33,198 nt of DNA, taken from the IMG/VR virus record IMGVR_UViG_3300035208_001228; one strand, given 5' to 3'. The translations under genes and the position numbers were made by a program. This stretch comes from an uncultured virus (IMG/VR IMGVR_UViG_3300035208_001228) (taxonomy: Duplodnaviria > Heunggongvirae > Uroviricota > Caudoviricetes). The notes under the pieces were generated by a model. That model ran no database searches, was not told the origin of the DNA, and saw only the letters and a list, made by a program, of their open reading frames with translations. This document shows positions 14,397 to 31,402 of the stretch, piece by piece; position 1 is the stretch's first letter, and each line of letters opens with the position of its first letter.

Positions 14397-14425
14397 CCAC
14401 CCGCCCGGCCGCGCCGGGCGGGTGG
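14397..14425 (-). terminator. Intrinsic terminator after the major capsid gene
   Basis: 13-bp perfect stem CCACCCGCCCGGC/GCCGGGCGGGTGG followed by CCCTTTCTT on the minus strand. Confidence 0.7.
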
Positions 14426-14440
14426 TATTCCAATTTCCTA

Positions 14441-15871: not shown

Positions 15872-15923
15872 TTCTGAAAAGGTTTACTTGGCCGCCTCAC
15901 CAAACAAGACGTGCCGCACGGAC

Positions 15924-16766: not shown

Positions 16767-16851
16767 TAGACAATTCCTTCAAACTCCCGGATTGGTTTCG
16801 GTTCTTTTGTGCCCGGTAGCACCAAAGGCCGCCCAGTCAGAAAACTGGTAT

Positions 16852-16887
16852 TGTTGCAGTTTAGTAGCGGCTGCACCCGCTTCGCTT
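16852..16887 (-). promoter_or_regulatory. 36-nt pseudoknot-like leader upstream of the scaffold gene (copy 1; copy 2 at 26370-26405)
   Basis: AAGCGAAGCGGGTGCAGCCGCTACTAA(A/C)CTGCAACA, 35/36 identical between the two sites. Confidence 0.5.
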
Positions 16888-17428
16888 ACACACGAGTGAT
16901 TCGTAATTCTGTCGCGGGCCGCAAATAGGGTGACAGCAAGTTCCACGCGCTGACGGATGGAATTCCGTTGACGATGTGCGCCAGCGGCGTCATGTCTCGG
17001 TTGTACACTGTACCTACGGACGAGTAACGGTGGCTCGTCACCGAGAGGTTCTCCAACTCCAATTCTGGATCACGCCCATCAAGCAATGCGTAGGCGATAA
17101 GGTAGGCGGCCTGCTCAATGTCCGTAGGTACTGTAGTGTCGCCGTCGCGTGGGAACTCCAAGGCTTGGGCCCGATTCGCCGCACGCACGTCGGCACCCGG
17201 ATCGTTGTTGCTGCGGTCAGACTCGTCGGTCACTTGCGCGCCGTGGGTATCCACTGCATAGACGGATGCTTTGGTGCCTTTGAAACTCAGTCGGTCTATC
17301 GCGCGCGTCGCGTCTTTTAGCGCCTTGACTTTCGTCGCGTTATCCGCATCGGCCCAAACTGATGCGTGCAATCGCTCGTCAAAGAACTGGTCTGCCTTTT
17401 CCACGCTGCCGTAATAGGTCATCATCAT
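16886..17428 (-). CDS. Head completion / head-tail connector (DnaT-like family of phage neck proteins)
   Basis: YYGSVEKADQFF...W...KALKDATRAIDRLSFKG...QALEFPR...VPTDIEQAAYLIA motif series; GAGGA SD. Confidence 0.7.
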   Translation of the reverse strand: MMMTYYGSVEKADQFFDERLHASVWADADNATKVKALKDATRAIDRLSFKGTKASVYAVDTHGAQVTDESDRSNNDPGADVRAANRAQALEFPRDGDTTVPTDIEQAAYLIAYALLDGRDPELELENLSVTSHRYSSVGTVYNRDMTPLAHIVNGIPSVSAWNLLSPYLRPATELRITRV

Positions 17429-17433
17429 GTTCC

Positions 17434-19460
17434 TCAGACCGCGATCCATGCAAAATCACAGCCGGTCGAGGCGGTCGTCACATCAGTTGCAACTACCATC
17501 CCATCAGGATCACCTTTGCTCGTCTCCGTCACAATAACGGTCGCCGTGTTGCCCGGCGTTGTCTCAACGACACCGACAGTGAGCGTGTTGCCCGGCGTTG
17601 TCTCAACGACACCGACAGTGAGCGTGTTGCCCGGCGTTGTCTCAACGACACCGACAGTGAGCGTGTTGCCCGGCGTTGTCTCAACGACACCGACAGTGAG
17701 CGTGTTGCCCGGCGTTGTCTCAACGACACCGACAGTGAGCGCACTTCCTGTGCCCGTCTCGGTTACGCTGATAGTTGCAGGGTCGCCGACCAACAACGTG
17801 CCGTCCCCTGTCAATGTAGCCACCTCTTGGTGGCCCAGTGCCCCCGTAAATGTCACGATCCACCCCGACGGGTCTCCGGCGGTGACTTCAATATCACCGT
17901 GTCCGACGTTACTCAAACCCTCCAAGGCGTCCTGCACATCAACAGACGCGGCGTCCCAGGCGATGTTTGCGGTCGTTTGGCCGTCGAACGTCAGCGTGAA
18001 CGTCCCGTTCGTAACGCCGTTCAATACGACTGTCTGAACCGCGTCTGCACCTGCTTCGCCGGTGATGGCATCGACATCCTGATTGGCGAGCAGCCCGCCG
18101 AACGCTACCGTGTGCGGGCCATCGCCGGTCACGGCTACGTCGCCTGGCTCGACACCGTCGATCGCTTCGAGCGCGGCCTGCACGGCAGCACTGTCGGCGT
18201 CGTACGCAATCGGTGCCGTAGTATGCCCGTCGAACGTCAGCGTGAAGGTGTCCCCTGCAATGCCGCCGCTCAGCGTGATGGTTTGGACTTCGTTCGTGCC
18301 GCCCACGCCGGTGATGGCATCGACATCCTGATTGGCGAGCAGCCCGCCGAACGCTACCGTGTGCGGGCCGTCGCCGGTCACGGCTACGTCGCCTGGCTCG
18401 ACACCGTCGATCGCTTCGAGCGCGGCCTGCACGGCAGCACTGTCGGCGTCGTACGCAATCGGTGCCGTAGTATGCCCGTCGAACGTCAGCGTGAAGGTGT
18501 CCCCTGCAATGCCGCCGCTCAGCGTGATGGTTTGGACTTCGTTNNNNNNNNNNCGAGCGCGGCCTGCACGGCAGCACTGTCGGCGTCGTACGCAATCGGT
18601 GCCGTAGTATGCCCGTCGAACGTCAGCGTGAAGGTGTCCCCTGCAATGCCGCCGCTCAGCGTGATGGTTTGGACTTCGTTGGATACACAGACACCGCTAA
18701 TCGCATCTGCGTCTGTGCCCGCCAAAGCATTGATGAACTCGACGGTATAGCCAGTGCTTGTGGCCAGCACAATGACATTTTCACCAAGTTCAGCTTCCAA
18801 TACCGCTTGGACCTCAGCGGCCGTGGCACCATACGCCACCGGCTCAAGTTCGATGGCGCCGTAGGACAGGGTCAGCGTGTCATCGACAGCCCCGCCGGTG
18901 ATGACGATAGTTTGCAATTCATTGATGCACACGCCAATAAGCAGCGGTACGTCCGTTTTGGCTAGGTCATTAACAAACGTAACGGTGTACGGTCCACCCG
19001 CATTCCCCGCGACAGCGACGTTGCCGCTGCCAACCGTAACGAGACCACACAGTGCGGCTTCTACCGTTCCGGCTGCGGCGTTATACGCAAGTGTCGAAGT
19101 CGTAGCACCCTTGAACGTCAACGTGAACTTGCCACTGGAATTGAGCCCAGTCACAGTGACCAACTGGCTAGAATTGCCTATCGGCACAGCGGCAATGAAG
19201 ACAGTGTGTGGGTCGTCCACTTCAAGTTTGAAATACTCGTCGGCTGGCAACGGGAATCCGGTCGTGCTTGACACGTTTGCGTGCCCAACATACAAGACGC
19301 CCGTGTTATTTTTGTTGGCGTAAAGCGTGACGCCTTTGAACACCTTGGCTGGCGCGTAACCTTCAGCGACAATCGGCTTGGCCACGATGTCAACGTGATC
19401 CTGGCCTGTGTAAAACGTGGGCACAGCAGTCTGGAAGCAATCCATCGAAGCGACCCTCAT
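17434..19460 (-). CDS. Repeat-rich virion structural/decoration protein with tandem NEVQ-type ~83-aa domains; spans an assembly gap
   Basis: ORFs 18519..19460 and 17434..18432 read as one gene broken by 10 Ns at 18544-18553. Repeated NE(V/L)QTI...FTLTF-G-TT--IAYDA-AA-VQAALE units. Confidence 0.75.
17545..17739. repeat. Perfect 39-bp tandem repeat x5 (LTVGVVETTPGNT)
   Basis: CGTGTTGCCCGGCGTTGTCTCAACGACACCGACAGTGAG repeated five times without spacers. Confidence 0.97.
18057..18680. repeat. Near-identical 249-bp tandem repeat, at least 2.5 copies, collapsed at the N gap
   Basis: Units start at 18057 and 18306; a partial unit follows the Ns. Confidence 0.95.
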
Positions 19461-21232
19461 TCAAATGTGTTTGCACCTGCGCCACGCTGTTGCGACACGG
19501 TGGAATTGTTCAGAGCGGTGTCGGTAGCACCCATTTTCTCAAGGCTGCCTGCCGTTGGCTCAATGGATAAGTCGCCTGCGCCACGCGCTCCTGCGTCCTT
19601 TTGAGCCGCGATGATTCGCGCGGCGCGTAATGCGTGAGCCTCACGCGCCTTTACGTACTCTTCCTTGTTGAACCCGAGCGCGAGCGAGCCTGTCTCGTCG
19701 CCACACAGACCCTGTTCCATCGCCATTGCAATCGTCTCGGGATCGCTGGTGGTGTACGGGGCCGCGTCAATCTCTTTATTGATCTGTTCGATAACGCTGA
19801 CTGACACTTTTCCGCCTAGAAGTGCTTGCACCGTGCATTTGGCGATTTCACGTTTGGCTATCTGACTGGGAACCTTCGCCATGAGGCCGGTCAACTTCGT
19901 CGATTCGTCGATGCGGTCAGCATCCGTCTTGAGACTGTAGCGATCGGGATACTTGATGACAGGGACCAGACGCTTTGACGGTTCGCGCTCCTCATACGCC
20001 GCCCAGTATTCGGAGAGCAGTTTCTCAGCCCCTTCGAGCACGAGGCCGATGTAGGACAAGCCGTTTTCCAGGCCCTGGTTGTCATACGACTTGGACTCGG
20101 CCGATTGACGCGCGCCCAGTGACGCGACAGCGAGGTTGATGAGAGTCCGTATGTCGTCCTTCAGACTGTCCTGCAACGTCTTCGACGCGATCAAAGGCTC
20201 CGATGACGGGTTGATGAATCCAGGGCGATCGGTCTCTTTGGCGTACAGGATACCCGTCGTGTTGCCGATCCGCATCTCTTTCGCAGTCGCGCCTTGGCCA
20301 CCTTCGGTCGCGGTGCCCTCATGCCCGTCGGGCCCCCTGAGATGCGTCACACCTTCGCGTCCATCGGACTGCCGCGTGAAGATGGGAACATTGGACTTCC
20401 AAGCGTAGCTGACATCACTGCTGGCCAGATTCAACAATGCGATCTGGTGCGTGCATACGTCCTTCAGCAACCCGTCGCCAATGTCAAGTAACACAAACGG
20501 AATCCGCGAAAGTTCAAGTTCGATCGGCTTGTCGTTTGGATTTCCGTCGCGGTCGGTCTTCTCGCCCTTCTCACTGTAGAACTGCAAGGACACCTTGCCA
20601 CGCGCGTCGATCCACAGATAGCGAAATCGCAGCACAGTCGTGTCGGGCAACCCTGTGTCGGCATCGTACGTCATCACTGTGTCGCGGAGCAGCAACGTCT
20701 CAAACTGCGACTGGCCCTCGGAGCGCGATAGTGTAAAGTTACGGATGTCTTCTAGGCGGTATGGATACAGGTACGGCGTAGCACCGACAGTGTCGCTTTG
20801 CCGCGCGCCGGCAGGCACTTCAGGAAAATCGACATACACCCCAACCTTTCCCATCAGCAGCAACTCGGTCAGAACACTCCTGCCACCGATGAATGCGTTC
20901 ATCGACGACCCACGACGATCGACGCCACCATTCAAACCTTCGACGGCCCGCCCGTATGCCGCACTACCACCGGTTCGCCGGACATCACGAAGTCGCTGGA
21001 AAATAGCGTTTCGGATTTCCAGCAACGCGGCCTTCGCGTGCGTCTGAATCGGCGTCATCGACAGCCGCTGCGCGTAGTCCTCCGTAGACTCACGGTTACT
21101 GTACCGTTGAAGATATGTCGTGCGGTAATACGTTCCGCCGTTGAAAGTGTCGCGCCAACAAGTCCAGTCTTGCGACAGCGACTCCCAGAGTGGGAACTGC
21201 GAATTGACGATGTTTTGCTTGACGGGGTCCAT
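19457..21232 (-). CDS. Portal protein, 591 aa
   Basis: YLQRYSNRESTEDYAQRL, LLMGKVGVYVDFP, IPFVLL and QSAESKSYD motifs of SPP1/DUF4055-like portals; downstream of the terminase. Confidence 0.88.
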   Translation of the reverse strand: MDPVKQNIVNSQFPLWESLSQDWTCWRDTFNGGTYYRTTYLQRYSNRESTEDYAQRLSMTPIQTHAKAALLEIRNAIFQRLRDVRRTGGSAAYGRAVEGLNGGVDRRGSSMNAFIGGRSVLTELLLMGKVGVYVDFPEVPAGARQSDTVGATPYLYPYRLEDIRNFTLSRSEGQSQFETLLLRDTVMTYDADTGLPDTTVLRFRYLWIDARGKVSLQFYSEKGEKTDRDGNPNDKPIELELSRIPFVLLDIGDGLLKDVCTHQIALLNLASSDVSYAWKSNVPIFTRQSDGREGVTHLRGPDGHEGTATEGGQGATAKEMRIGNTTGILYAKETDRPGFINPSSEPLIASKTLQDSLKDDIRTLINLAVASLGARQSAESKSYDNQGLENGLSYIGLVLEGAEKLLSEYWAAYEEREPSKRLVPVIKYPDRYSLKTDADRIDESTKLTGLMAKVPSQIAKREIAKCTVQALLGGKVSVSVIEQINKEIDAAPYTTSDPETIAMAMEQGLCGDETGSLALGFNKEEYVKAREAHALRAARIIAAQKDAGARGAGDLSIEPTAGSLEKMGATDTALNNSTVSQQRGAGANTFE

Positions 21233-21789
21233 CAGATTCGCACCTCTGTACGTTCAACGTAGTCCGCCAATGCACGCATCCGATCGGCTGAATCCCTCAC
21301 AAACCCGAGGACACGATTACAGTTGTCGCAGAGAAAGCCCCTGAACGCGCCTGTCTCGTGGTCGTGGTCAAGACACAGACGCTGTGTGCATTCAACCTCG
21401 GGAACGCCACAGACGTGGCACTTGCCGGTGAACGCCGCTGTCACTTCTTCAACCGTTGCAGTGCAAGGTGAATAGCCTAGTTGCTTTGCCGCATGTTGTG
21501 CGCGATAGATTGCCATCTTGAACCGGTTCACTTCTGCGTACTGCTGTCGTTCCAACTTATACACGTCCCTATACACCCGGCACCGTTCACGTTGTTTCGC
21601 CAGGACGCCAGGGCGATTACGGTATGCACGCCGTTTCTTACGCGCCTCAGGTGTACTGTTACGTTCGCGCATCGCTATGCAAAAGCAGTCTTTGCATTCC
21701 GCTCTGCGGCCGTCCGTGACTCTTCGGTCTGTGTAGAACTCGTCCAGTTCCTTTTCAACGCCACACTTTCTACAGACCTTCGTGTTCAT
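21232..21789 (-). CDS. Endonuclease VII-type HNH homing endonuclease, 185 aa
   Basis: N-terminal CxxC...CxxC; C-terminal CHVCG...LCLDHDHETGAFRGFLCDNCNRVLG. Inserted between terL and portal. Confidence 0.9.
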   Translation of the reverse strand: MNTKVCRKCGVEKELDEFYTDRRVTDGRRAECKDCFCIAMRERNSTPEARKKRRAYRNRPGVLAKQRERCRVYRDVYKLERQQYAEVNRFKMAIYRAQHAAKQLGYSPCTATVEEVTAAFTGKCHVCGVPEVECTQRLCLDHDHETGAFRGFLCDNCNRVLGFVRDSADRMRALADYVERTEVRI

Positions 21790-23801
21790 ATTCCCTTGAT
21801 GCTTCGGGTGGTGTCAATCGGTGCGTACTTCAATCCGATGCCCGCATAATTCAATGCGTGTGCAAAGTGGTCCGGTCCAGTGTTGATATAGACGCCGATG
21901 ACTTCACCCATCGGGTTCTTCTCAACCGTCCTCGTCAGGTTCTTCACGTGCGTGCTGAACTCGTCAGGGATGTCGCCAGGCAACCAAATACGCGACGGAT
22001 TGACCTTGAACCGTCCGAGCGTCTTGCCGAGCCATGACGTGCGATCTACCTGCAACATCGGGGCTCCACTGTCTGTGTCCTTGACGGTGATTTCATTGCC
22101 TTCGTTTCCGCCGCGATACCGTGTCGTGGCGGCGAAACCGTCGAACCTGCGACAGAACCTTCGTGCCTCATTCACATTCGGGTCTGCGTCCACGACTGCG
22201 TATAGCACCTGCCACTCGGCCATCAACTGATCGAGTCGATCCCAATCCTCTCCAAAAAACTTACCAACCCAGAGCACCCTGCAAATCGCAGAGTCGCCAA
22301 GGTCCGGGCCGAGTTCGCGGTCGAATAGCCATTCACAAATGACGATGTAGGATTCGCGTTCGCCTTGGTCCACACCCATCGTGATGAGCCGGCCGCTCCG
22401 GGTAGGCCGCAAGCCGTCCATCGAATATGGGCTAGCTGCACAAGCGACTGCATTAGCGATCATCGCGTCAGTCACTTTTGCGCCGGGGCCGACGTAGGGC
22501 AAACCTAGTTTCGAGTTGTGAAACTCTTTCGCCGCGAACTCGTTATTGATTCCCTCGAAATGTGCGACTACCAACTCAGCCGGTGATACGGTGAAAGAGT
22601 ACAACTGGCTGATATGGAAACCGCGAAACTCTTTGTTCGCGTTAGGTGCGGTCGAGACCCATTCAGCGTCGGCCAGAAACTCGGGCTTAGCTTCCTGCGC
22701 CAACCTCGCACCACACTCTTTGCACTTCAGATAGGAGTCCTTGCAACGCGGGTCCGTCGCGTACTCTCCGCAAACCTGAATGCAACCCGGCCATACCAAC
22801 TCTGTCCGCCTGCCGCAATGCGGACACTTGAACATGAAATGTTCTTGCGTCGTGTCCTTGTACAGCTTGTGAATGCCGTGCTCCGGGACGGTTGGTGTCG
22901 AGATGCCCCAGACATGCTTATGCAATTGTCCTGAAAGCCGTTCCAATGCCTGCGCGACTTGCTGGCGGTCCATCCGATCGACCTCATCAAAGATAAGTTC
23001 CGACACAGGAATCGACAGCAGACTATCGCGTCCGCGCGTGCCGCGAATGTACATGCAGTTATTGCCGGCCCGCTTCAAGTTGACCGCGTTGGTGTCGGTG
23101 AACACTGAGTCGAGGTATGGGCTCAGACTTAACGCCGGTCCCAAACGTGACTTGCTGAAATCGCTTGCCGCGCCTTGCGTCGGCATCAAGTACAGCACGT
23201 CCCTCTTCATTCTGTCGATGGTGTACAGTGCGCGATTGATAGCGACCTCAGTGACCCCGAGTTGTGCGCCCTTTAAGACCCAGGTATAAGGCGTCCAACT
23301 GTCGTGCATTTCCCGACACCACGGATGATAGCGCCAAGAGTAATTACCGGCGAAGTCGCCGCCCATGATCCTCCGATGCTGTGCCCACCGCGAACAGGTC
23401 GTCAACGACGTGGCCGTCATATTCTCGGCCAGCGCCGCGTCGAAATCAGCCATCGTGATAGGCATACGTGCTACGATCTCTTGAATGCTGTGCGTGCGGA
23501 GTTCGTCTTTTCCGTTACGCAGAAGGATGAACGTCGGGACGGCTGTGACGCCGTACCGTCTCGCAATGACTGGGTGTTCGTCAATGTCATACCGAGTGAC
23601 CTTCAGACCGGCCTTCTCCAGCCGATCCACAATCGGGGCTGCCGCACGACACGGCAGGCACCACGAGGCGTGGAAGACAAGCAGACTGATCCTGTGTGGG
23701 ACTGGCACATGGATCGGAATCGGGCGCGGTGCGATCACCGACTGCTGACAGCCGGATAAAGCCAGAAGGAGCAACGCGGCTGAGATCAATCTTTGAAGCA
23801 T
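21786..23801 (-). CDS. terL: Terminase large subunit (lambda GpA-type), in frame with an N-terminal lipoprotein signal and thioredoxin domain
   Basis: KGAQLGVTE, YLMPT, LIFDEVDRM, ISTPT, CPHC...CKEC and MGVDQG...DHFAHA motifs. Residues 1-~112 are an LLLLALSGC lipobox plus a WCLPC thioredoxin. Terminase proper may start at 23465 or 23453. Confidence 0.9.
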   Translation of the reverse strand: MLQRLISAALLLLALSGCQQSVIAPRPIPIHVPVPHRISLLVFHASWCLPCRAAAPIVDRLEKAGLKVTRYDIDEHPVIARRYGVTAVPTFILLRNGKDELRTHSIQEIVARMPITMADFDAALAENMTATSLTTCSRWAQHRRIMGGDFAGNYSWRYHPWCREMHDSWTPYTWVLKGAQLGVTEVAINRALYTIDRMKRDVLYLMPTQGAASDFSKSRLGPALSLSPYLDSVFTDTNAVNLKRAGNNCMYIRGTRGRDSLLSIPVSELIFDEVDRMDRQQVAQALERLSGQLHKHVWGISTPTVPEHGIHKLYKDTTQEHFMFKCPHCGRRTELVWPGCIQVCGEYATDPRCKDSYLKCKECGARLAQEAKPEFLADAEWVSTAPNANKEFRGFHISQLYSFTVSPAELVVAHFEGINNEFAAKEFHNSKLGLPYVGPGAKVTDAMIANAVACAASPYSMDGLRPTRSGRLITMGVDQGERESYIVICEWLFDRELGPDLGDSAICRVLWVGKFFGEDWDRLDQLMAEWQVLYAVVDADPNVNEARRFCRRFDGFAATTRYRGGNEGNEITVKDTDSGAPMLQVDRTSWLGKTLGRFKVNPSRIWLPGDIPDEFSTHVKNLTRTVEKNPMGEVIGVYINTGPDHFAHALNYAGIGLKYAPIDTTRSIKGI

Positions 23802-23851
23802 TCATTTTTCTCATTTCGTGCTACGTACTCGGCCAAAGCCAAGATTCGATC

Positions 23852-24141
23852 CGACGACCCACGACGATCGACGCCGCCATTCAAACCTTCGACCGCGCGC
23901 CCGTAGGCGGGGCTACCGCCGGTTCGCAGAACGTCACGAAGTCGCTGGAAATCTGAATCGACGGCATCGACAGCCGCTGACTGTAGTCCTCCGCCGATTC
24001 GCGGTTGCTGTATCGCTGAAGATACGTCGTTCTATAGCACGCGCCGCCATTGAACGTGTCACGCCAACAAGTCCAGTCTTGCGACAGCGACTCCCAGAGC
24101 GGGAAACACGAATTGACGATGCTTTTCTTGACCGGGTCCAT
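23852..24141 (-). pseudogene. 5' fragment of a second portal gene (40-bp deletion, truncated)
   Basis: MDPVKKSIVNSCFPLWESLSQDWTCWRDTFNGG matches the portal N-terminus. Lacks the equivalent of 21003-21042. Homology ends at GVDRRGSS. Confidence 0.9.
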
Positions 24142-24593
24142 CAGATTCGCGCCTCCGCGTGTGCCACATAATCCGCCAATGCGCGCATCCGATCGGCTGA
24201 ATCCGTTGCCAGCCCTAAGATATGGTTACAGTTGGCACAAAGCCAGCCGCGAAACTCGCCAGACGAATGATCGTGAGCCATACACAGGCGCGATGCACAC
24301 TCAATCTCGGGCACGCCACAAGCGTGGCAGCGTCCAGCGTACGCTGACTTTATCTCCTCGACAGTGTAGCCACGTCGCCGAGCATGGGTACGCGCGTTGC
24401 GTATCGCCGTCTTGTATCGCACGGCCACCCTATATTGGCAGCACCGCTCAGGATATTGCCGCTGGTACGTCGCGCCGCATTTCTTTTTACAGACTTTGCA
24501 CTGTGTGGTGCGCCCATCTCTGTGGGTGCAGCTACCGTAGAACTCAGCACGCGGCTTCGTATCACTGCACGTTTTGCAAGTCTTCGTTTCCAA
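24141..24593 (-). CDS. Second endonuclease VII-type HNH (150 aa), probably inactive
   Basis: Paralog of 21232..21789 with TTG start; active-site LDHDH is changed to MAHDH. Confidence 0.75.
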   Translation of the reverse strand: METKTCKTCSDTKPRAEFYGSCTHRDGRTTQCKVCKKKCGATYQRQYPERCCQYRVAVRYKTAIRNARTHARRRGYTVEEIKSAYAGRCHACGVPEIECASRLCMAHDHSSGEFRGWLCANCNHILGLATDSADRMRALADYVAHAEARI

Positions 24594-25322
24594 CTCAGAT
24601 GCCCCTGATGCTTCGGGTAGTGTCGATGGGCGCAAACTTCAACCCCAACGCCGCATAGACCAGACTGTGGGCAAAGTGGTCGGCTCCGTTCCCTGTTGTG
24701 ACATAGACGCCTGCCACATCCCCCAGCGGCCCCTTCTCGACAGTCCGCGTGAGGTTCATAATGTGCGTCTTGAACTCTTCAGGTATATCCTTTGGCAGCC
24801 AGATGCGTGTCGGGTTGACTTTGAATCGCCCGAGCGCCGCGCCGATCCAACTCGTACGATCCACTTGGACCATCGGTGCGCCGCTGTCCGCGTCCTTCAC
24901 GGTGACTTCGTTGCCCGCACTGCCACCGTGATACCGTGTGCGTGCGGCGTAGCCCTCGAACCGACGACAGAACCGGCGGGATTCGCTAGGATCGGGATCA
25001 GCATCGACGACGGCATAGAGAACTTGGAACTCAGCCATCAATTGGTCCAACTGTGACCAGTCACTACTGGGAAACCGCCCAACCCAGAGCACCTTGCAAA
25101 TGGCTGACTCTCCTAGATCGGCACTGAGCGGACGATCAAACAGCCACTCGCAGACTACAACGTGCGAGATTACCTCGCCCTGATCTACGCCCATCGTGAT
25201 GAGCCGGCCGCTTCGTGTCGGGCGCAAGTCGTCCATCGAATGGTCACGAAGCGCGTTATTAAACATGTCGGCCGTGACACGCGGCTTCGTATCACTGCAC
25301 GTTTTGCAAGTCTTCGTTTCCA
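24548..25322. repeat. Identical 45-bp direct repeat at 24548-24592 and 25278-25322
   Basis: CACGCGGCTTCGTATCACTGCACGTTTTGCAAGTCTTCGTTTCCA occurs twice. Confidence 0.97.
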
Positions 25323-25323
25323 T
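24595..25323 (-). CDS. Stand-alone diverged copy of the terminase C-terminal nuclease domain, fused to the first 15 aa of an endoVII
   Basis: METKTCKTCSDTKPR followed by VT..M..SMDDLRPTRSGRLITMGVDQG...APIDTTRSIRGI, colinear with the last ~230 aa of terL. ATG overlaps the upstream TAA. Confidence 0.85.
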   Translation of the reverse strand: METKTCKTCSDTKPRVTADMFNNALRDHSMDDLRPTRSGRLITMGVDQGEVISHVVVCEWLFDRPLSADLGESAICKVLWVGRFPSSDWSQLDQLMAEFQVLYAVVDADPDPSESRRFCRRFEGYAARTRYHGGSAGNEVTVKDADSGAPMVQVDRTSWIGAALGRFKVNPTRIWLPKDIPEEFKTHIMNLTRTVEKGPLGDVAGVYVTTGNGADHFAHSLVYAALGLKFAPIDTTRSIRGI

Positions 25324-25745
25324 TAGATCACTGCGGCGATGACAACGGGACCGGCGACCTTGGCGACTTCGATCGCAATCTTCTCAGCCGCCTCGATTCG
25401 CGCCCTCATGGCAGCACGGCCTTCCGGCGTCTTGATCTTGGCGCCGAGCATTCGCTCGAAGGTGCCTTCCAACTCTTGGATGATCGCAGAATTGCCAGCC
25501 TTAACGATGACTGCGGCATTCTGGATAGCTGTGAGAAGGTCATCAACCTCCCCGACCGTCACTGCCTCCAACGCTTCGGGCAACTTGACCAGGCCGAGTT
25601 TGCGCAACTCGATGGACAAGGCTTGTGTGGCCTTGCGAATGCTGGTCACACTCTTCTTGCCCTTGAAAATCAACTTGCCGATTTCGCGCCCGGCGACAAG
25701 ACACCCGGCCGCCGCCAACACCCATATCAGAATCTGTAGAAACAT
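25323..25745 (-). CDS. N-terminally membrane-anchored helical protein, 140 aa
   Basis: MFLQILIWVLAAAGCLVAG hydrophobic start, helical body and hydrophobic C-terminus. Confidence 0.7.
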   Translation of the reverse strand: MFLQILIWVLAAAGCLVAGREIGKLIFKGKKSVTSIRKATQALSIELRKLGLVKLPEALEAVTVGEVDDLLTAIQNAAVIVKAGNSAIIQELEGTFERMLGAKIKTPEGRAAMRARIEAAEKIAIEVAKVAGPVVIAAVI

Positions 25746-25749
25746 CTGT

Positions 25750-26337
25750 TTACCCTTGCTTCAAAGACGTGGACTGATTACGCCGCGCGCTCACAAGACC
25801 GAGCACGGTGCCGACGACCAAAAGGAACACACAGAGACCGACGCCCCAGTCAGGATCAGTCGGTGCGATGTCCGGCGTCCCACCGTCATCGACTGGATCG
25901 GGTGCCGGATCATCCGGTGTCACCGGGTTTGGCTGTGGACCCGGATTCGGTTGCGGCCGGAGCGGGAAGATGCGATGACGCTGCGCCGCGTTGGCGATTG
26001 CGTTATACAGATCAGCCGGTACTTGCTTACGTGTCGCCTCAAAAATCACGCGCCCCACAGCGTCTTGCACGCGCACAGTCGGGGTGCCTTTGATAGACGG
26101 TTTGTAGTGCTCAAACATCGGATTGTCGGTTGTGACCGGTAGATAGTGGCATTGCTTCCGCAACTCTGCCAGCTTGCCCTCGTGGAATTGCTGAATGATC
26201 GACTGGTACTGCGGGTCGTTTGCGTCCCCGATCACGGAAATGTACCACTTGTCGCTATCCTCGGGCAGCTTGAGAACACGTTCTTCGGCACCGTAGCATG
26301 TCGAGCAGAGCAACACTAGAAAAAAGAAGTATCGCAT
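25750..26337 (-). CDS. Exported protein with possible thioredoxin-like fold (no CxxC), Pro-rich linker and C-terminal TM anchor, 195 aa
   Basis: Signal peptide MRYFFFLVLLCSTCYG; YKPSIKGTPTVRVQDAVGRVIF resembles the Trx cis-Pro region; PQPNPGPQPNP linker; TM WGVGLCVFLLVVGTVLGLV. Confidence 0.6.
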   Translation of the reverse strand: MRYFFFLVLLCSTCYGAEERVLKLPEDSDKWYISVIGDANDPQYQSIIQQFHEGKLAELRKQCHYLPVTTDNPMFEHYKPSIKGTPTVRVQDAVGRVIFEATRKQVPADLYNAIANAAQRHRIFPLRPQPNPGPQPNPVTPDDPAPDPVDDGGTPDIAPTDPDWGVGLCVFLLVVGTVLGLVSARRNQSTSLKQG

Positions 26338-26358
26338 GTATTCACTCAGGGGTAGGAG

Positions 26359-26949
26359 CTATTGGTGCGTGTTGCAGGTTAGTAGCGGCTGCACCCGCTT
26401 CGCTTCACTGGGTGCTGGGGCGCTCGGTGTATACACCGGCGTCACCGCCCACGAATGACTCTTGAACCAGTCCGCTAGGAACTGTTCGCGTGGAATCCAA
26501 ATAACCTGGCCGACTGAATTATTGTCGAGGATGCCAGCGTAATTATCATTCAAAGCAACGAGGCATACCATGTGCGCGTAATTGTTCACGCCGACGGCGC
26601 ATCCACGATGAGTGCGGATGGACCAGTTCAAAAAATTTACGTCCTTCTTCCCGTAGGTCGTCGCGTACCGGATGCCAAGCCGCTCAAAAAGTGGTTCGAC
26701 ATCACTCGGCGACGCGCCATCCCCGCAGTTCTGACGAATCCACGCGGCTGTCACCGGCCGATTCTGCCAGCGGAATAATGTCACGAGGCTGGCCCACACA
26801 CACGAACCTTGTCCCCGCGAACCGCGCCAATTCGTCTGACGTGCCGGCACTGGTACGTCCACGACAACTGACGGCAGCGTCACGGCAGCACAAACAATGA
26901 ATGCGAGTTGTGGGATTATCAGCCGCCACACCGGCGTCAAAGAAGTCAT
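26359..26949 (-). CDS. Papain-fold (C39-like) cysteine peptidase with N-terminal signal/TM
   Basis: Q..GSCVWAS (Cys), AHMVCLV (His), ILDNN (Asp). ATGA coupling at 26949 with GGAG SD. Confidence 0.7.
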   Translation of the reverse strand: MTSLTPVWRLIIPQLAFIVCAAVTLPSVVVDVPVPARQTNWRGSRGQGSCVWASLVTLFRWQNRPVTAAWIRQNCGDGASPSDVEPLFERLGIRYATTYGKKDVNFLNWSIRTHRGCAVGVNNYAHMVCLVALNDNYAGILDNNSVGQVIWIPREQFLADWFKSHSWAVTPVYTPSAPAPSEAKRVQPLLTCNTHQ

Positions 26950-27428
26950 GTTACTACGTTCTCCCGCCGGCAATCCGTTTTCCCCGCGCTGAGTCGAACA
27001 CGCTTTTGATCCTTGCCCATGCGACGCGCAACGAGGTGATGGAGCCGCATACCGTCACTTGACCGCACGACATACCCCGAATAAGACATCCGCCAGGCCC
27101 ATTGGTTCAAGTAGTCGAAGTCTTCACGACTGACGACCGCTTGGCACTGTTCGGAACCTTGCCGCCAGGCCGTGGTGAGCCGAACGGCCTTGAGCGAGAG
27201 ATTGTCGCGTTGGCAGTTGAGTGGGTTCCGGTCATAGAACCGCACGACGCCGTCCTTGTGCATCTCGGGAGACATGCGCAAGGCCACTTCATGTTGTAGC
27301 CGCACGTCGTGCCCGCCGTCCCTTCGAATAACATAACCACCACGCACGTGCCACCTGTGCTGTGCCAGGCAGGCGTCTTCGTCGCTAGTGAACGCAACCC
27401 GACCGTGGGGAAGTTGAATTGTCACCAT
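26946..27428 (-). CDS. Protein of two tandem degenerate HNH_3-like domains, 160 aa
   Basis: Two repeats of A-x-x-S-x-ED...W...GYV-R...RL-H...C-R-N, resembling the HNH of HNH-AP2 endonucleases but lacking the DH catalytic motif. Confidence 0.6.
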   Translation of the reverse strand: MVTIQLPHGRVAFTSDEDACLAQHRWHVRGGYVIRRDGGHDVRLQHEVALRMSPEMHKDGVVRFYDRNPLNCQRDNLSLKAVRLTTAWRQGSEQCQAVVSREDFDYLNQWAWRMSYSGYVVRSSDGMRLHHLVARRMGKDQKRVRLSAGKTDCRRENVVT

Positions 27429-28057
27429 TATTTCAACCGGCGTGGTTTGAGCACAACATGGTTCCGCCGCAAGCGTCTGGCGAGACGGTTGGGGTTCCAG
27501 CGTGAGGCATCATCCGTCAGCAGCAACCCGATTTCACAATATGCTTTCGCCAACCACTCGCTGCAAAAGATTGTGTGAAGGTCTTCGGGCCTAAACAGCG
27601 ACTCGACCCATGACAACCCGATACCAGCCGATCGCATCGCACCTTCTTGATCGTACGGCACCCCGATTGTTCCGACCAAGAAGTCACTCAGCCGCTGTGA
27701 CTCAAAGCTATACAGTGGGCGTGACAGTGGATGTGCCCAGACGCGGCCTTTGTAATTTGTCAGCACGTCATCCAGGCGATGCGCCTGCGTGCCGTTGAAC
27801 AACTTCTGCTGTATCACGCACGGACGCGAGTCGAGCGTCGTCGATTCAAACAGCAACAACTCACCACGGTGCTCGGCCATGATCCCGACGTGTGACAGAC
27901 CCCAGCGCGGAACACCGAGAGTGACGACGTTGATAATGTCGCTGAGCCCGCATGCCCCGCTGAATCCGAGCAACGTTCCTGGTTGCAGGTTGGCAGTGGC
28001 TGCACCCACTTCGCCCGCAGACGCTTGATCGCGGTCTGGAATCCACTTCTTGGCCAT
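27428..28057 (-). CDS. Permuted papain-like NlpC/P60 (YiiX/YebB-like) amidase/peptidase
   Basis: LQPGTLL, SHVGI (His), ESTT, VPYD and FCSEWLAKAY (Cys after His). Confidence 0.85.
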   Translation of the reverse strand: MAKKWIPDRDQASAGEVGAATANLQPGTLLGFSGACGLSDIINVVTLGVPRWGLSHVGIMAEHRGELLLFESTTLDSRPCVIQQKLFNGTQAHRLDDVLTNYKGRVWAHPLSRPLYSFESQRLSDFLVGTIGVPYDQEGAMRSAGIGLSWVESLFRPEDLHTIFCSEWLAKAYCEIGLLLTDDASRWNPNRLARRLRRNHVVLKPRRLK

Positions 28058-28164
28058 CACTGTAACCCTATACACACACACGACTTAGCGAATTGGCTTG
28101 TCGCGCAGCCCGACAGCCCGATGCTACATATACTATAGGGAAAAACAGCGACTTTAGGCCAGAA

Positions 28165-28181
28165 ATTCGCCGTTTGGCGAA
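28165..28181 (-). terminator. Short hairpin after the recombinase-like gene; a TATAGT -10-like hexamer follows toward the late operon
   Basis: TTCGCC-AAAC-GGCGAA-TTT on the minus strand; TATAGT at 28132-28137 (minus). Confidence 0.35.
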
Positions 28182-28184
28182 GAT

Positions 28185-29090
28185 TTACGCCTTCGGCTTG
28201 GCCCCGGCCTTGGCCCCGGCCTTGGCCCCGGCCTTGGCCCCGGCCTTGGCCCCGGCCTTGGCCCCGGCCTTGGCCCCGGCCTTGGGCTTGGGCTGCTGCT
28301 TCAGTTCGCGTTGGATTTCGATCGCGGCGTCCATCAGAGTCCGCGCTCGCGCGATAAGCAGAGCGGTTTCAACAACGTTTCCTGTTTGTTCGGCAACCCA
28401 TACCTTAACGGCGAGTCGAGTAATATCCGCTGAAAGATCACCGTCGTCGAGCCGCACTCCCCACCCATGTTCCGTGCGCTTCCATTGGTACGGATGCTGC
28501 CGTCGCCGGTGCATGATGCGATAGACAGTCGGCCCGTTGAACAGCGTCCCAATAGCCGTCCTGTGCCCGGCTGCATTCAGATACTCCGCGATCTGACTGT
28601 AGGTCATACCTTCCTTGCGAAGCCGATCGAAGGGCAGTAAACTGTACAGCTTTTGCGCCTTGATCTGCCGCACCTTCGCCGCTTCTCGGATGGCCTTCTT
28701 TTGGGCACTGGGACGTGTCTTCTTAACCGCCGGGTTTGCGAACCCCATGACCTTCCCCACAAGTTTTTCTTTCGTCTCTTTGCTCACTACCCGCGCGAAG
28801 AATCTGGCCTTTTCCAACGCGACGTGGCGTGTCTTATTGTTGAGATACGGCTTGTCACAGCAAATGAACTCAATCCCGTCAAGCATGGATAAGACGACGT
28901 GGCTACGTACGAGACTTCCGATCCTACCGATTATGAGGCGCGACCCTGTCTCACGAGCGTGCGAAATTGCCTCCTCTAGCCCGGAAAGCGACTTTCCTGT
29001 GCTAGTATACTCTGCCCCAATCGTCCCGTACTCCTCGGCCAAGTACCGCTGGTCGTGGACGGGAAGTCTGATCCACAGTGTATTGTCCAT
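28185..29090 (-). CDS. Serine recombinase (resolvase plus recombinase DNA-binding domain) homolog, catalytic motifs degenerate, with (AKAG)n tail
   Basis: LEEAISHARETGSRLIIGRIGSLVR, IEFICCDKP and GMTYSQIAEYLNAAGHRT align by eye to the resolvase family. YxRVS reads WIRLP here. Confidence 0.75.
   Translation of the reverse strand: MDNTLWIRLPVHDQRYLAEEYGTIGAEYTSTGKSLSGLEEAISHARETGSRLIIGRIGSLVRSHVVLSMLDGIEFICCDKPYLNNKTRHVALEKARFFARVVSKETKEKLVGKVMGFANPAVKKTRPSAQKKAIREAAKVRQIKAQKLYSLLPFDRLRKEGMTYSQIAEYLNAAGHRTAIGTLFNGPTVYRIMHRRRQHPYQWKRTEHGWGVRLDDGDLSADITRLAVKVWVAEQTGNVVETALLIARARTLMDAAIEIQRELKQQPKPKAGAKAGAKAGAKAGAKAGAKAGAKAGAKPKA
28198..28284. repeat. 12-bp tandem repeat x7 encoding AKAG
   Basis: TTGGCCCCGGCC repeated. 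Confidence 0.95.
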
Positions 29091-29109
29091 AGCCACAGGG
29101 TACAACACT

Positions 29110-29490
29110 ATGAAGGCTTTGTCAATCGAGAACAGCATGGTCCAAGCATTCCGGGAGCAGGTCCGCGAGTACCAACCCACTGCTGAAGGGATAGGACTGC
29201 TACCCGAGCCAGGCGGTAGCATCGAGAACCTTCGACGACTGGGGCGTGACATCCTCGCCGTTCTGAACGGTACACACGTGCTGGTGGTTTTCAAGACGGG
29301 CGAGACCTACCTGACCAGCCTGCCGCCCGGTCCCGAGTTGGCCGATCTCCTGACCGAGTTGAACCAGGGCGACTTTGTGGACCGCGACGAGCTACTCCGC
29401 ACATTTGCGACGTGGCCGACCGACCTTGAGGGACCACTACCTATAACGGGTGGCATAGGAAAAGCGCCGTTTGGCCAGTCGTTACCTTAG
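29110..29490 (+). CDS. Hypothetical protein, 126 aa, divergent from the recombinase homolog
   Basis: 3' part of ORF 28615..29490 starting at ATG 29110 (MKALSIENS...); globular-looking composition. Confidence 0.55.
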   Translation: MKALSIENSMVQAFREQVREYQPTAEGIGLLPEPGGSIENLRRLGRDILAVLNGTHVLVVFKTGETYLTSLPPGPELADLLTELNQGDFVDRDELLRTFATWPTDLEGPLPITGGIGKAPFGQSLP

Positions 29491-29780
29491 TTTGGCCAGT
29501 CGTTACCTTCCGTTTTGCGCTCAACAACTCGATTGGCCCTTACGTATTCAACGACTTACGTCTCAGCAGGCCAATCGAGTTTCTTGGCTGCTACATTACA
29601 CGCTATACTATTCTTGTTTTGACTACGGTCCCAAACACGTTTGTATATGGCTAAATGTAGCAAACAAGGAACTCGATTGGCCTGCTGAGACGTAAGTCGT
29701 TGAATACGTAAGGGCCAATCGAGTTGTTGAGCGCAAAACGGAAGGTAACGACTGGCCAAACTAAGGCAACGACTGGCCAA
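29471..29780. repeat. Long inverted repeat: 127-bp arms (29471-29597 / 29654-29780, 4 mismatches), 56-bp spacer, nested sub-repeats
   Basis: Direct reverse-complement comparison. Confidence 0.95.
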
Positions 29781-30256
29781 GATTTTCCTCACAAGGGTGG
29801 TTTTATCCATCCAATGGGTGGAGAGCATCGAGTAACGCTCGCGGTAGTAGTCATGCCCCCTGTCGTAAGGGTAAATACCCCTCCCTTGGATGTAGTATGC
29901 CCGAGTGGAACGGCAGATGCCAGGCGTGTCAAGGCATGTCAAGGCATGCCCGAGCCGCCCGAGCCGCCCGAGCCGCCCGAGCCGCCCGAGAGGAATTGCC
30001 GCGTCATTGACTCTGTCGATCAGGCCCGCCGGTGAGCAAACAGCCCCGGAATCGACTGTATCAAGCGTGCTGGTTGGGAGGGCGATTTTGACCCCTCCCC
30101 CTACCATTCGGGTGGTCTCTCAGCGCGTTGTGTAGCATAGTAGGCTAGATAATACCGCGTCCAAAGTCGCTCCAATGCAATAGGTTACGACTCGCCAAGG
30201 GCGCGCCTTGTCCTTGCCATTGGGGACAACAGCCAGCCTGCTACCCCGCCATTATG

Positions 30257-30310
30257 GTGTATCAATATGATACACAACGTGACGTTACGTAGTGTATCAT
30301 TTTGATACAC
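30257..30310. promoter_or_regulatory. Tandem palindromic operator-like sites GTGTATCA-N3-TGATACAC (30257-30275, 30292-30310)
   Basis: Two perfect 8-3-8 palindromes 35 bp apart in non-coding DNA. Confidence 0.75.
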
Positions 30311-30491
30311 CCTAATGGGGAGGGAACAAGGTCAACTGCGCGTGAGTATAAGCGGAACTAATACTGCGCTTACCGCCTGCTAATGCTGTCGGGTACTATG
30401 GGTCGTGGTGTTGTGTCGTCACCTATACTACATCTTGTGTCCATGCTGGCTACTGACGCTGATTGCCTAGTATTAGATTGCCTTATACGGT

Positions 30492-30562
<71 letters not shown>

Positions 30563-30631
30563 GTCATTATACTATGGAAGCAGGGGTCTCAAGCGTGATC
30601 GCTCCCGATGTCCGCTATACAGAATTCCGAA

Positions 30632-30680
30632 TTCAGAATTTGACAACCGAACACAGTGGCGTAAGCTTAAGTAGGAAGGG
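30632..30680 (+). promoter_or_regulatory. Sigma70-type early promoter plus SD, copy 1 of a 49-bp direct repeat
   Basis: TTGACA (30640)-N16-TAAGCT (30662) followed by AGGAAGG. Confidence 0.75.
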
Positions 30681-30730
30681 GAACAAACATGGGAACAAAC
30701 ATGGGAACGCAAGCAAGTAGGAGTATCAGA

Positions 30731-30826
30731 ATGCCACGTCGCACATCGGTAAACTTCGCAATGACCGGAAGGCGTTTCGCCCTTACGAGGAGTCGGCGTG
30801 TCGGTATATTTGAGTTCAGAATTTGA
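30731..30826 (+). CDS. Small basic early peptide (31 aa; 45 aa from ATG 30689)
   Basis: AGGAG-N7-ATG; MPRRTSVNFAMTGRRFALTRSRRVGIFEFRI; the stop lies in the second promoter copy. Confidence 0.35.
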   Translation: MPRRTSVNFAMTGRRFALTRSRRVGIFEFRI

Positions 30827-30863
30827 CAACCGAACACAGTGGCGTAAGCTTAAGTAGGAAGGG
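30815..30863 (+). promoter_or_regulatory. Sigma70-type early promoter plus SD, copy 2
   Basis: Identical 49 bp to 30632-30680; TTGACA at 30823. Confidence 0.75.
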
Positions 30864-30872
30864 AGACAAACA

Positions 30873-31004
30873 ATGCACACTATAAAGCGACACGGCAGGA
30901 GCTATGCTCTCTCGTTCAACGGCTATCTCTTGCTGGACGGATTGCCTTTAGCCGCGCTCCAAAATTACTGCACGTACTTACGTGTACCCTACACAGTGGA
31001 GTAA
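30873..31004 (+). CDS. Small early protein, 43 aa
   Basis: GGGAG SD; MHTIKRHGRSYALSFNGYLLLDGLPLAALQNYCTYLRVPYTVE. Confidence 0.55.
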   Translation: MHTIKRHGRSYALSFNGYLLLDGLPLAALQNYCTYLRVPYTVE

Positions 31005-31008
31005 CAAC

Positions 31009-31173
31009 ATGCGATACCGAATCATCTCAAAAGAGACAACAAGGGGGGCGTGGGCGGGGGACACGCTGGTTGAGTGTCGAACACGACAGAGCGCAATAGC
31101 GCTCTGTCACGCGATTCCCCACTGCTATGTTATCGACCGCCTTACGGGCGCAACCGTCTGTGAGAACAGGTGA
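31009..31173 (+). CDS. Small early protein, 54 aa
   Basis: GGAG-N7-ATG; tightly packed after the previous ORF. Confidence 0.6.
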   Translation: MRYRIISKETTRGAWAGDTLVECRTRQSAIALCHAIPHCYVIDRLTGATVCENR

Positions 31174-31177
31174 CACT

Positions 31178-31339
31178 ATGCCAATCATCAGAAAAACATG
31201 GCGGGGCAATTGTGTCTGGGTAGTCCTATTGCCGGGTAACATCGTCGCATTGTGGGACGGGTGCCTCAACTTGTGGGACATCGCCGTGTGCAGCACCTTC
31301 GATAAGGCGAACGCCGAATTCGATAAGCGACTAGCGTAA
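31178..31339 (+). CDS. Small early protein, 53 aa
   Basis: AGGTGA SD before ATG 31178. Confidence 0.55.
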   Translation: MPIIRKTWRGNCVWVVLLPGNIVALWDGCLNLWDIAVCSTFDKANAEFDKRLA

Positions 31340-31402
31340 CAGTGTTGATTTTAGTTTGCGTTTGCTTTTCGCTACCTCTCATCTTGTTGAGGAGGCGTTA
31401 TT

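Follow-up and report, generated by a model that had tools for sequence, protein, structure and literature searches.

A conserved gene module around an exported cysteine peptidase, a candidate non-canonical lysis cassette of Planctomycetota phages and prophages

The stretch of DNA analysed here, 33,198 nucleotides from an uncultured virus of the Caudoviricetes (IMG/VR record IMGVR_UViG_3300035208_001228) and hereafter called the window, carries next to its terminase gene TerL a set of minus-strand genes for a permuted papain-like hydrolase (p217), an exported cysteine peptidase (p204), a membrane-anchored thioredoxin-fold protein (p195), a protein with a single transmembrane (TM) helix (p140) and a lipoprotein thioredoxin. 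We propose, at a probability of roughly one half, that siphophages and prophages of Planctomycetota share in these genes a conserved, non-canonical module for envelope disruption (lysis), built around the exported and possibly redox-controlled cysteine peptidase. Computation gave the folds and topologies, the linkage, the link to planctomycete hosts, the lack of recognisable endolysins and a modelled interface of p195 with p204, whereas lysis as the function, the substrate and the roles of p140, p217 and the thioredoxin are inferred. This reading is drawn from the place of the module, its make-up and the lack of alternative lysis genes; in the phage of the window, the module is interrupted by selfish homing-endonuclease DNA. 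An earlier sequence-only reading of the window had pointed to a protease-plus-thioredoxin cassette for attack on the envelope, and all the genes that it named were found in this place on the minus strand, as tightly coupled as it had said, those upstream of TerL overlapping or lying 4-21 nucleotides apart.

Conservation, host and the search for other lysis genes

Related loci were gathered through the p204 family. Of 122 candidate stretches in viral contigs, 102 were confirmed and 80 kept; eight loci from genomes were added, and hidden Markov models (HMMs) of the five module families were applied to 87 loci, 78 of which are non-redundant. The order p217, p204, p195, p140, lipoprotein thioredoxin, TerL, portal is colinear in all 78 non-redundant loci, although the related loci share just 30-60% amino-acid identity. 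Both p195 and p140 are present in every one of the 78 and p217 in all 67 loci with enough flank; among loci with flank, the lipoprotein thioredoxin occurs in 66 of 77, TerL in 66 of 76 and the portal gene in 58 of 68. The sequence-only reading had counted a lack of conserved linkage as grounds for dropping the cassette, and linkage is what we found.

In about ten loci TerL does not come next after the module. Seven of nine such loci that were scanned have an open reading frame (ORF) of 1447-1865 amino acids directly before p217; L090 and L067 show only the contig-truncated end of a large ORF in this position, and in L095 an ORF of 322 amino acids lies in between. Large PHROGs of unknown function are matched by four of these ORFs, and in L100 there is a tail-fibre PHROG match upstream as well. 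Downstream of the module we found a tyrosine integrase in L065, L067, L090 and L092, Sak4/SSB recombination genes in L059, L085 and L095, and unassigned ORFs in L039, L100 and L106. Given these two contexts, before TerL and after a large ORF, the module travels as a unit, and both positions are typical places of lysis cassettes.

A further set of loci (L003-L021), related to the window by their TerL (38-57% identity) and in several cases with short flanks, was searched with the HMMs of the five families. Only the thioredoxin recurs widely there, in ten loci; the p140 family was found in L003 and L015, and weaker matches in L019 (E 4e-5) and L004 (E 0.0015, downstream of TerL) were not counted. 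The p195 family is matched in L015 by its C-terminal part at the start of a contig (E 3e-18) and weakly, at E 9e-6 to 1.5e-4, in L003 (a fragment at a contig start), L012 and L006. Neither p217 nor p204 was found in these loci, several of which have short flanks, and no Pfam wall-hydrolase family was matched in the 79 upstream ORFs scanned. In L004, L009, L010, L012, L013 and L016, the thioredoxin lies upstream of TerL despite there being no peptidase genes; it has an N-terminal hydrophobic anchor in L009, L010, L012 and L013, is followed by a DUF1360 membrane protein in L009, L012 and L013, and is preceded in L004, L009 and L013 by ORFs of about 290 and about 340 amino acids, one of which has a twin-arginine translocation (TAT) signal (L004). 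The thioredoxin and its neighbours in these TerL relatives may be an alternative module in the same position.

As to the host, seven of the eight genome loci lie in metagenome-assembled genomes of Planctomycetota (three Thermoguttaceae, two Pirellulales, one Planctomycetaceae and one unclassified) and the eighth in a bin labelled archaeon, and the names that homologues carry agree with a planctomycete host. Thus, the host prediction that had been proposed as a check is answered by prophage copies, which support a planctomycete.

The search for other lysis genes covered 44 kb of the phage, namely the window and a contig (G001) that is identical to window positions 1-17631 and extends past the last tail gene by 10.9 kb, with genes for a primase, a helicase, an exonuclease, nucleotide enzymes and two HNH endonucleases. 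Neither Pfam nor PHROG matched an endolysin, holin or spanin in these 44 kb. In an 81.8-kb relative (G002; 80% complete by the estimate of its record), 84 ORFs compared with PHROG and 63 with Pfam, mostly leaving aside those already matched by BLASTP to structural or module genes of the window, gave no lysis-category or wall-hydrolase match other than phrog_2252. This 'endolysin' match, present in both G001 and G002, was rejected, as it covers the N-domain of a dATP/dGTP pyrophosphohydrolase (PF18909). Six-frame searches of the records of five relatives, 60-84% complete, found Phage_lysozyme, Amidase_2, SLT and Peptidase_M15_4 in none of the five; GH19 was found in none either, by a search whose positive control gave no signal. 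The earlier remark that no classical endolysin is visible thus extends to the 44 kb and to the relatives, and the holin-endolysin-spanin set that would have spoken for conventional lysis did not turn up in these incomplete genomes, which falls short of proof that there is none. In addition, p217 and p204 have no match in 50,697 deposited phage genomes, and a full-text literature search, judged by titles and abstracts, found no work on lysis genes of planctomycete phages.

Predicted folds and topologies of the module proteins

The protein at the centre of the module, p204 (26359-26973, minus strand; 204 amino acids), starts with an N-terminal hydrophobic segment and is, on its structural model, an exported cysteine peptidase of the C39 fold (clan CA), as the sequence-only reading had supposed. 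The AF2 model (predicted local distance difference test, pLDDT, 85.8; predicted TM-score, pTM, 0.78) matches 6mpz and 3erv in Foldseek at E about 2e-5, and VIA-align gave Z 14.4 to the C39-like peptidase 3erv (root-mean-square deviation, rmsd, 3.0; 144 aligned residues), Z 13.8 to 6mpz and Z 12.6 to the pseudomurein endoisopeptidase PeiR (rmsd 3.0, 135 residues). The best solved matches include the double-glycine leader peptidases 6mpz, ComA and PCAT1. Residues C50, H126, D142 and N144 are invariant in 36 family sequences, in the Cys-His-Asp order of C39, and C117 is a second, nearly invariant cysteine; the His-Asp stretch aligns to 3erv, in a profile match to the PDB of E 0.36 only. Sequence searches detected no Pfam family at E<=0.01 and, by single sequence, no PHROG or PDB match, and none of 62 homologues carries a precomputed Pfam domain. 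A lipobox is present in 30 of 36 relatives; in p204 of the window and of the three relatives nearest to it, a plain hydrophobic signal or anchor takes its place. Among viral models in BFVD, the nearest include an 'Endolysin' of Gordonia phage OneUp (E 5e-5), a cyanophage 'lysozyme' and a mycobacteriophage LysA.

Two groups of known enzymes are thus close to p204. C39 and C39-like peptidases (3erv, PCAT, ComA) are its best structural match, with catalytic residues ordered alike, and such peptidases typically cut double-glycine leaders. Unlike PCAT and ComA, p204 would be a stand-alone periplasmic enzyme, with no fusion to an ABC transporter, no leader substrate in sight and no Pfam match; no fused longer form was seen among 8000 candidates, which is weak evidence, and no ABC transporter or leader-peptide gene is conserved beside the module in related loci. 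The pseudomurein endoisopeptidases PeiW, PeiP and PeiR, from (pro)phages of methanogens, and the LysA peptidase domains of actinophages share with the p204 model a papain-like fold and the Cys-His-Asp order, but p204 differs from these lysins in having its own export signal or lipobox, no wall-binding domain and no detectable sequence similarity to them. As its model lies as near to PeiR as to the leader peptidases, and as its nearest viral models include proteins annotated as endolysin, lysozyme or LysA, p204 seems to be the best candidate for the lytic effector.

The next gene encodes p195 (25750-26337, minus strand; 195 amino acids). Its signal peptide appears to be cut by signal peptidase I and is followed by a domain of about 100 residues, some 40 residues of Pro-rich linker, a C-terminal TM helix and a basic tail. 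The domain was modelled as a thioredoxin fold (pLDDT 82.7) and matches 3hz4 in Foldseek (E 1e-4; TM-score 0.63 by target; rmsd 3.0; 96 columns), with 19 matches at E<=0.001; the 50 matches listed are all thioredoxins or thioredoxin-fold proteins, except for two designed proteins and one ATP-synthase subunit. The exported, TM-anchored thioredoxin-like protein of the sequence-only reading is therefore recovered in these models. None of 31 family members has a CxxC motif in the domain, which is thus a pseudo-enzyme or a binding module.

A binding role is also suggested by a modelled complex. A job with three chains, p204, the p195 domain and the lipoprotein thioredoxin, run on our own alignments, gave the pair of p195 domain and p204, the one contact that was modelled, a score of 0.74, as the model's own confidence, against 0.03 for the best of three controls; this mark is reached by 116 of 157 solved complexes and by 2 of 215 mismatched pairs, a calibration that is rough for a three-chain job of this kind. 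Contacts agree by at least 81% between runs, and partner pLDDT is at least 81. The interface comprises residues 60-68, 88-96, 106-114 and the C-terminal tail 172-180 of p204 and residues 20-28, 64-68, 72-77 and 89-97 of p195, and it coincides with invariant or nearly invariant columns in both families. The SWAVTPVYTP tail of p204 and P25, D27, H64, R89 and Q91 of p195 belong to it. Since the catalytic residues of p204 lie outside this interface, the model suggests that p195 serves as a tether of p204 rather than as a plug of its active site. No contacts between p195 and the lipoprotein thioredoxin were among those listed in the three-chain model, which is not evidence against binding.

The lipoprotein thioredoxin (23466-23801, minus strand), located past the duplicated block as had been described, carries an LSGC lipobox and a WCLPC motif and matches PF00085 at E 2e-11 (44.3 bits; cut-off 23.5), and PF13728 TraF at E 7e-5. 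Its C48, C51 and cis-proline P89 are invariant in 31 sequences, WCGPC being the commonest motif (12/31); a lipobox is found in 28-30 of 31 relatives, with the lipobox Gly-Cys in 30 of 31. As p204 would carry its catalytic cysteine in the periplasm and is co-conserved with this CxxC lipoprotein, it may be under thiol control.

Next to p195 lies p140 (25323-25745, minus strand; 140 amino acids), the TM-helical protein of the earlier reading, in which family sequences and hydropathy reveal a single TM helix at the N-terminus, then a helical domain that is conserved over about 100 amino acids and a variable tail rich in Ala and Pro. It has no informative match in the Atlas, Pfam or PHROG, the Atlas look-up returning just unnamed viral clusters at structural TM-scores <0.45. 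A role as small terminase was rejected, as the TM helix is conserved; by its features, p140 is a candidate for a holin-like trigger or a membrane tether. In L036 (10057-10362), L039 (10074-10361), L052 (10133-10447) and L100 (12085-12381), the lipoprotein thioredoxin is followed by a protein of about 100 amino acids whose N-terminal part is soluble and whose TM helix lies at the C-terminus; this holin-like candidate is absent from the window.

The first gene of the set, p217 (27428-28081, minus strand; 217 amino acids; probable start 28057), encodes no signal peptide. A profile of 40 homologues matches the 'cysteine peptidase' 3kw0 in the PDB (E 0.0034) with alignment of the SH.GI and CSE motifs, a single-sequence search of the PDB having given nothing usable, and PF05708 (Peptidase_C92) matches 17 of 40 homologues at E<=1, at best 6.2e-7. 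Among the 120 homologues listed, one carries a precomputed PF05708 match. The Atlas model of p217 overlays a C92 cluster with TM-scores of 0.70/0.63 over 170 residues, both sides being predicted models. His56 and Cys165 are invariant in 40 sequences, in the permuted order with His before Cys. By these sequence features, p217 would be a permuted cysteine hydrolase of the NlpC/P60 superfamily, in the YaeF/YiiX (Peptidase_C92) branch, in line with the permuted NlpC/P60 enzyme noticed earlier. It shares with Peptidase_C92 (YaeF/YiiX; 3kw0) the His...Cys order, the two motifs and the predicted fold; unlike the members in Pfam, p217 of the window stays under the gathering score (E 0.013; 16 vs 27 bits) and belongs to a largely viral subfamily of more than 235 members.

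The lysis reading and its alternatives

A single soluble hydrolase of the NlpC/P60 superfamily in the cytoplasm, accompanied by membrane proteins and lipoproteins, is a composition that fits a Gram-negative lysis cassette. In the working that we propose, p204, exported by the Sec route, would be the periplasmic effector that cuts peptide links of the wall, either in peptidoglycan stems or in envelope proteins. It would be held by the thioredoxin-fold domain of p195, catalytically dead and anchored in the inner membrane by way of the long Pro-rich linker. The lipoprotein thioredoxin (WCxPC) might set the thiol state, by keeping or returning the catalytic cysteine of p204 in reduced form or by reducing disulfides of the envelope. 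Membrane timing or tethering could be supplied by p140, and the cytoplasmic p217 could be a second, holin-dependent lysin or a membrane/lipid hydrolase, as other permuted NlpC/P60 enzymes act as lipid hydrolases; the roles of these two proteins are guesses. A stricter version, in which a redox-gated lysis peculiar to Planctomycetota phages has p204 parked on p195 and switched on or kept active by the thioredoxin, the two together dismantling an envelope whose load is borne by disulfide-linked proteins as well as peptidoglycan, and p217 and p140 completing the set, seems to us improbable, at about one chance in five.

Among the closest known arrangements is the lysis cassette of lambda (holin S, endolysin R, spanins Rz/Rz1). 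Like it, the module is co-oriented and placed directly before a gpA-type TerL, and it has a similar mix, in which a single soluble hydrolase of the cytoplasm is joined by small membrane protein(s) and lipoprotein(s); in contrast to it, the module would rely on cysteine hydrolases and two thioredoxin-fold proteins and has no sequence or family match to a holin, endolysin or spanin. A second parallel is found in exported endolysins: the SAR endolysin of phage P1 has a caged catalytic cysteine, and signal-peptide endolysins are exported before lysis. Likewise, p204 would be exported and in need of restraint, with its catalytic cysteine in the oxidising periplasm and C117 as a second cysteine; unlike the P1 enzyme, it would be of papain fold and not a lysozyme, and its control would come from the thioredoxin and the dead thioredoxin-fold partner. 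The module would be a lysis cassette built from unprecedented parts.

In a two-component spanin, as defined in PMC6139136, an inner-membrane i-spanin binds a lipoprotein o-spanin, the former with an N-terminal TM domain, N-in/C-out topology and a periplasmic helical domain, the latter a small, mostly unstructured, Pro-rich lipoprotein of the outer membrane. The lipoproteins of the module differ from an o-spanin so described, being a folded thioredoxin of about 90 amino acids and a peptidase of about 150, and by these definitions (PMC6139136) p195 and the module lipoproteins do not qualify as spanins. The pair of i- and o-spanin in lambda-type systems (PMC6139136) is resembled by the modelled binding of inner-membrane p195 to p204, a member of a lipoprotein family. 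A TM-anchored p195 with a long Pro-rich linker and a lipoprotein p204 would have the geometry of a spanin pair rather than membership; unlike a lambda-type i-spanin, p195 loses its signal peptide by cleavage and is held in the membrane by a helix at its C-terminus. As a unimolecular spanin of the T1 gp11 type, p195 has the C-terminal TM domain but lacks the lipobox, which was found in 1 of 31 family members by a strict and in 6 of 31 by a loose definition. For p140, an N-terminal TM domain and a helical domain match an i-spanin, and the charges suggest the opposite topology: its N-terminal tail is uncharged and the K/R residues come after the TM helix.

Several observations weigh against lysis. 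Pfam and PHROG place none of the five module proteins, by sequence, in a known family of endolysins, holins or spanins, and an unrecognised or unsampled endolysin is possible, given that the relatives are 60-84% complete with many ORFs unannotated. Because of the charge distribution around its TM helix, the helical domain of p140 may be cytoplasmic, a misfit to an i-spanin. The sole PHROG match of p217, phrog_1128, is of the category 'moron/auxiliary' and not lysis, and we know of no C92 enzyme with demonstrated wall-hydrolase activity. Since the lipoprotein thioredoxin is missing from 11 of 77 loci, it is not indispensable; the cassette in the window tolerates insertions; and in both contexts the module sits near recombinase or integrase genes, where lysogenic-conversion genes are also found. 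Finally, the score of the p195-p204 complex is the confidence of the model itself and not a measurement.

The nearness to recombinases and integrases is also what lends some weight to a non-lytic remodelling of the envelope, which we consider a rather unlikely competitor: receptor or surface proteins would be cleaved or masked, for superinfection exclusion or debris avoidance, and the thioredoxin would keep the peptidase active. Four of the five module proteins are targeted to the envelope and many copies of the module lie in prophages, as this explanation would have it, but it does not account for the invariable linkage of the cytoplasmic p217 (67/67), it leaves these phages without any lysis genes, and it sits poorly with genes that are co-oriented and tightly packed with TerL. 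Less probable still is a periplasmic redox and protease set with some other late role, such as peptide processing and secretion or help in oxidative folding. The leader peptidases among the best structural matches of p204 and the TraF match of the lipoprotein thioredoxin would suit it, and the pairing of a CxxC with a CxxC-less periplasmic thioredoxin-fold protein recalls TrbB/TraF of F-like conjugation systems; on the other hand, virion assembly is cytoplasmic, and neither a conserved transporter or candidate leader-peptide gene beside the module nor, as weak evidence, a longer fused p204 was found. That the genes are unrelated neighbours (morons) with no joint function is very improbable: selfish DNA (p160 and the duplicated block) does interrupt the set in the window, but a chance neighbourhood is excluded by the linkage counts, with colinearity in 78 of 78 non-redundant loci at 30-60% identity, and the module moves whole between two genome contexts and has a modelled interface between two of its members.

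The mechanism put forward by the sequence-only reading, an exit by reduction and proteolysis of a disulfide-cross-linked protein wall with p140 and the lipoprotein thioredoxin in spanin-like roles, is one that we regard as unlikely, only slightly ahead of the peptide-processing role. The protein walls ascribed to planctomycetes are rich in cystine, the host phylum fits, and an exported cysteine peptidase is co-conserved with a CxxC lipoprotein thioredoxin in 66 of 77 loci; planctomycete envelopes have also been described (PMC3422733) as 'proteinaceous cell walls' resistant to sodium dodecyl sulphate (SDS). In relatives, the p140 and thioredoxin genes adjoin, in the order of a separated i-/o-spanin pair. 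However, planctomycetes do have peptidoglycan (PMC4432640), the p204 fold matches wall-peptide lysins such as PeiR, and the protein wall as target is not supported by these results. A periplasmic thioredoxin would, moreover, need an electron donor from the host, as none is encoded nearby, and the spanin roles are opposed by a lipoprotein that is a folded thioredoxin and not a short Pro-rich o-spanin and by the charges flanking the p140 helix, which suggest a cytoplasmic domain. Given the resemblance of the p204 model to cysteine-peptidase lysins (PeiR and the phage proteins annotated as endolysin or lysozyme), peptidoglycan seems at least as likely a target as a protein wall.

Selfish DNA, the late region and implications

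Two insertions interrupt the module in the window. One is p160 (26946-27428, minus strand; 160 amino acids), wedged between the conserved p217 and p204 genes with overlaps of 1 and 28 nucleotides. It is built from the N-terminal domain of the HNH-AP2 homing endonuclease that the phage itself encodes, present twice in tandem, and lacks an HNH motif; its halves match L108:6711-7232 by BLASTP at E 3e-6 and 0.001, and a single-sequence search of the PDB gave nothing usable. As a tblastn search of the loci found it only in L002 and L071, p160 is a variable insert outside the conserved module.

The other is a block of 1.44 kb (23881-25323) that is a 72-87% identical copy of 21043-22426, which spans the C-terminus of TerL, an endonuclease VII gene and the N-terminus of the portal gene. 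On the minus strand, it comprises a duplicate of the C-terminal (nuclease) part of TerL (24595-25323; phrog_675 E 3.5e-20; 70.7% amino-acid identity to TerL 330-559; repeats D3-D5), which opens with 15 codons that repeat the beginning of the endonuclease VII gene, a second endonuclease VII-type homing endonuclease (24141-24635; PF02945 E 2.7e-14; phrog_2633 E 1.8e-23), 43% identical in amino acids to the copy at 21232-21789, and a duplicate fragment of the portal N-terminus (23881-24141; 86% amino-acid identity to portal 1-63; repeat D2, 81% at the nucleotide level). A perfect direct repeat of 45 nucleotides (D6, 100%; 24548-24592 and 25278-25322) flanks the TerL duplicate. Contigs of four DNA runs from three studies, the source sample possibly among them, cover 21000-28300 with no differences and with similar depth across the duplicated block, which argues only that the duplication is not an obvious mis-assembly; in three runs, the unitig of the 45-nucleotide repeat is about twice as deep as those beside it. 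The same cassette occurs without the block in L002 (TerL 80% identical), L022 is a relative with an uninterrupted module, and the block has the look of a remnant left by homing or recombination involving a related phage. The 44 kb hold one GIY-YIG (12488-13042), two endonuclease VII-type and two HNH (L108:1674-2144 and 6711-7232) homing endonucleases, and the phage is thus unusually rich in such genes.

The window represents the late region of a siphovirus-like phage, read from the minus strand. Beyond the lipoprotein thioredoxin follow, on that strand, TerL of the lambda gpA type (21786-23465; PF05876 E 6.2e-30; phrog_675 E 1.5e-85), the endonuclease VII-type homing endonuclease 3' of TerL (21232-21789), the portal gene (19457-21232; phrog_145 E 7.3e-34), two Ig-like repeat proteins, a head-tail adaptor, a scaffold and a P22-type coat protein, then the GIY-YIG homing endonuclease and tail genes including a tape measure of 1229 amino acids. 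The placement of the cassette at the head of the late operon stands as far as gene order goes; consensus scans of 23700-31500 gave promoter and terminator counts at the level of shuffled sequence (3 vs 3.5 and 9 vs 7.6), so that the operon part draws no support from them. No stop codon closes the ORF of the lipoprotein thioredoxin, which reads on into TerL in the same frame, as a direct reading of the junction shows, to give an ORF of 671 amino acids (21786-23801). Such a fusion occurs in 4 of 64 non-redundant loci (the window, L002, L003 and L091), all in the subclade to which the window belongs, with TerL 57-100% identical; in the remaining 60, a median of 534 nucleotides separates the two genes. 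Since an exported lipoprotein on a cytoplasmic packaging ATPase makes little sense, TerL probably starts inside the fused ORF (MPITMADFD...).

Upstream of the module, ORF 28185-29294 (minus strand) encodes a degenerate serine-recombinase-like protein that ends in an (AGAK)n tail, encoded by eight copies of a 12-nucleotide tandem repeat (28173-28304). PHROGs for integrases/invertases match the related protein of G002 at E 1e-26, and the assignment of p369 as a small terminase subunit was rejected on this match to serine recombinases and invertases. An inverted repeat of 138 nucleotides (93% complementary, arms 34 nucleotides apart, within 29471-29780) and a 45-nucleotide palindrome of perfect spacing (30239-30328) lie between the minus-strand operon and a divergent plus-strand gene (31403-32620), and may be a regulatory or origin region. 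At 17584-17741, an 87-nucleotide end segment of G001 matches the window by BLASTN at three offsets spaced 39 nucleotides, which points to a 39-nucleotide tandem repeat within the gene of an Ig-like repeat protein, inside which G001 ends. The G002 relative has at least seven ORFs that match DNA methyltransferase PHROGs and also encodes a ribonucleotide reductase, an RNA ligase, a DNA ligase and two ParB-like proteins.

If the module is indeed a lysis cassette, a solution based on a cysteine peptidase and thioredoxins would join the known ways to break a diderm envelope, and its enzymes could serve as probes for what holds the disputed planctomycete envelope together, be it peptidoglycan or cross-linked protein. 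In the redox-gated form, if that were true, it would be a lysis pathway without a homologue of any holin, endolysin or spanin. In either case of lysis, the module might provide a marker set by which phages and prophages of Planctomycetota can be recognised in metagenomes.

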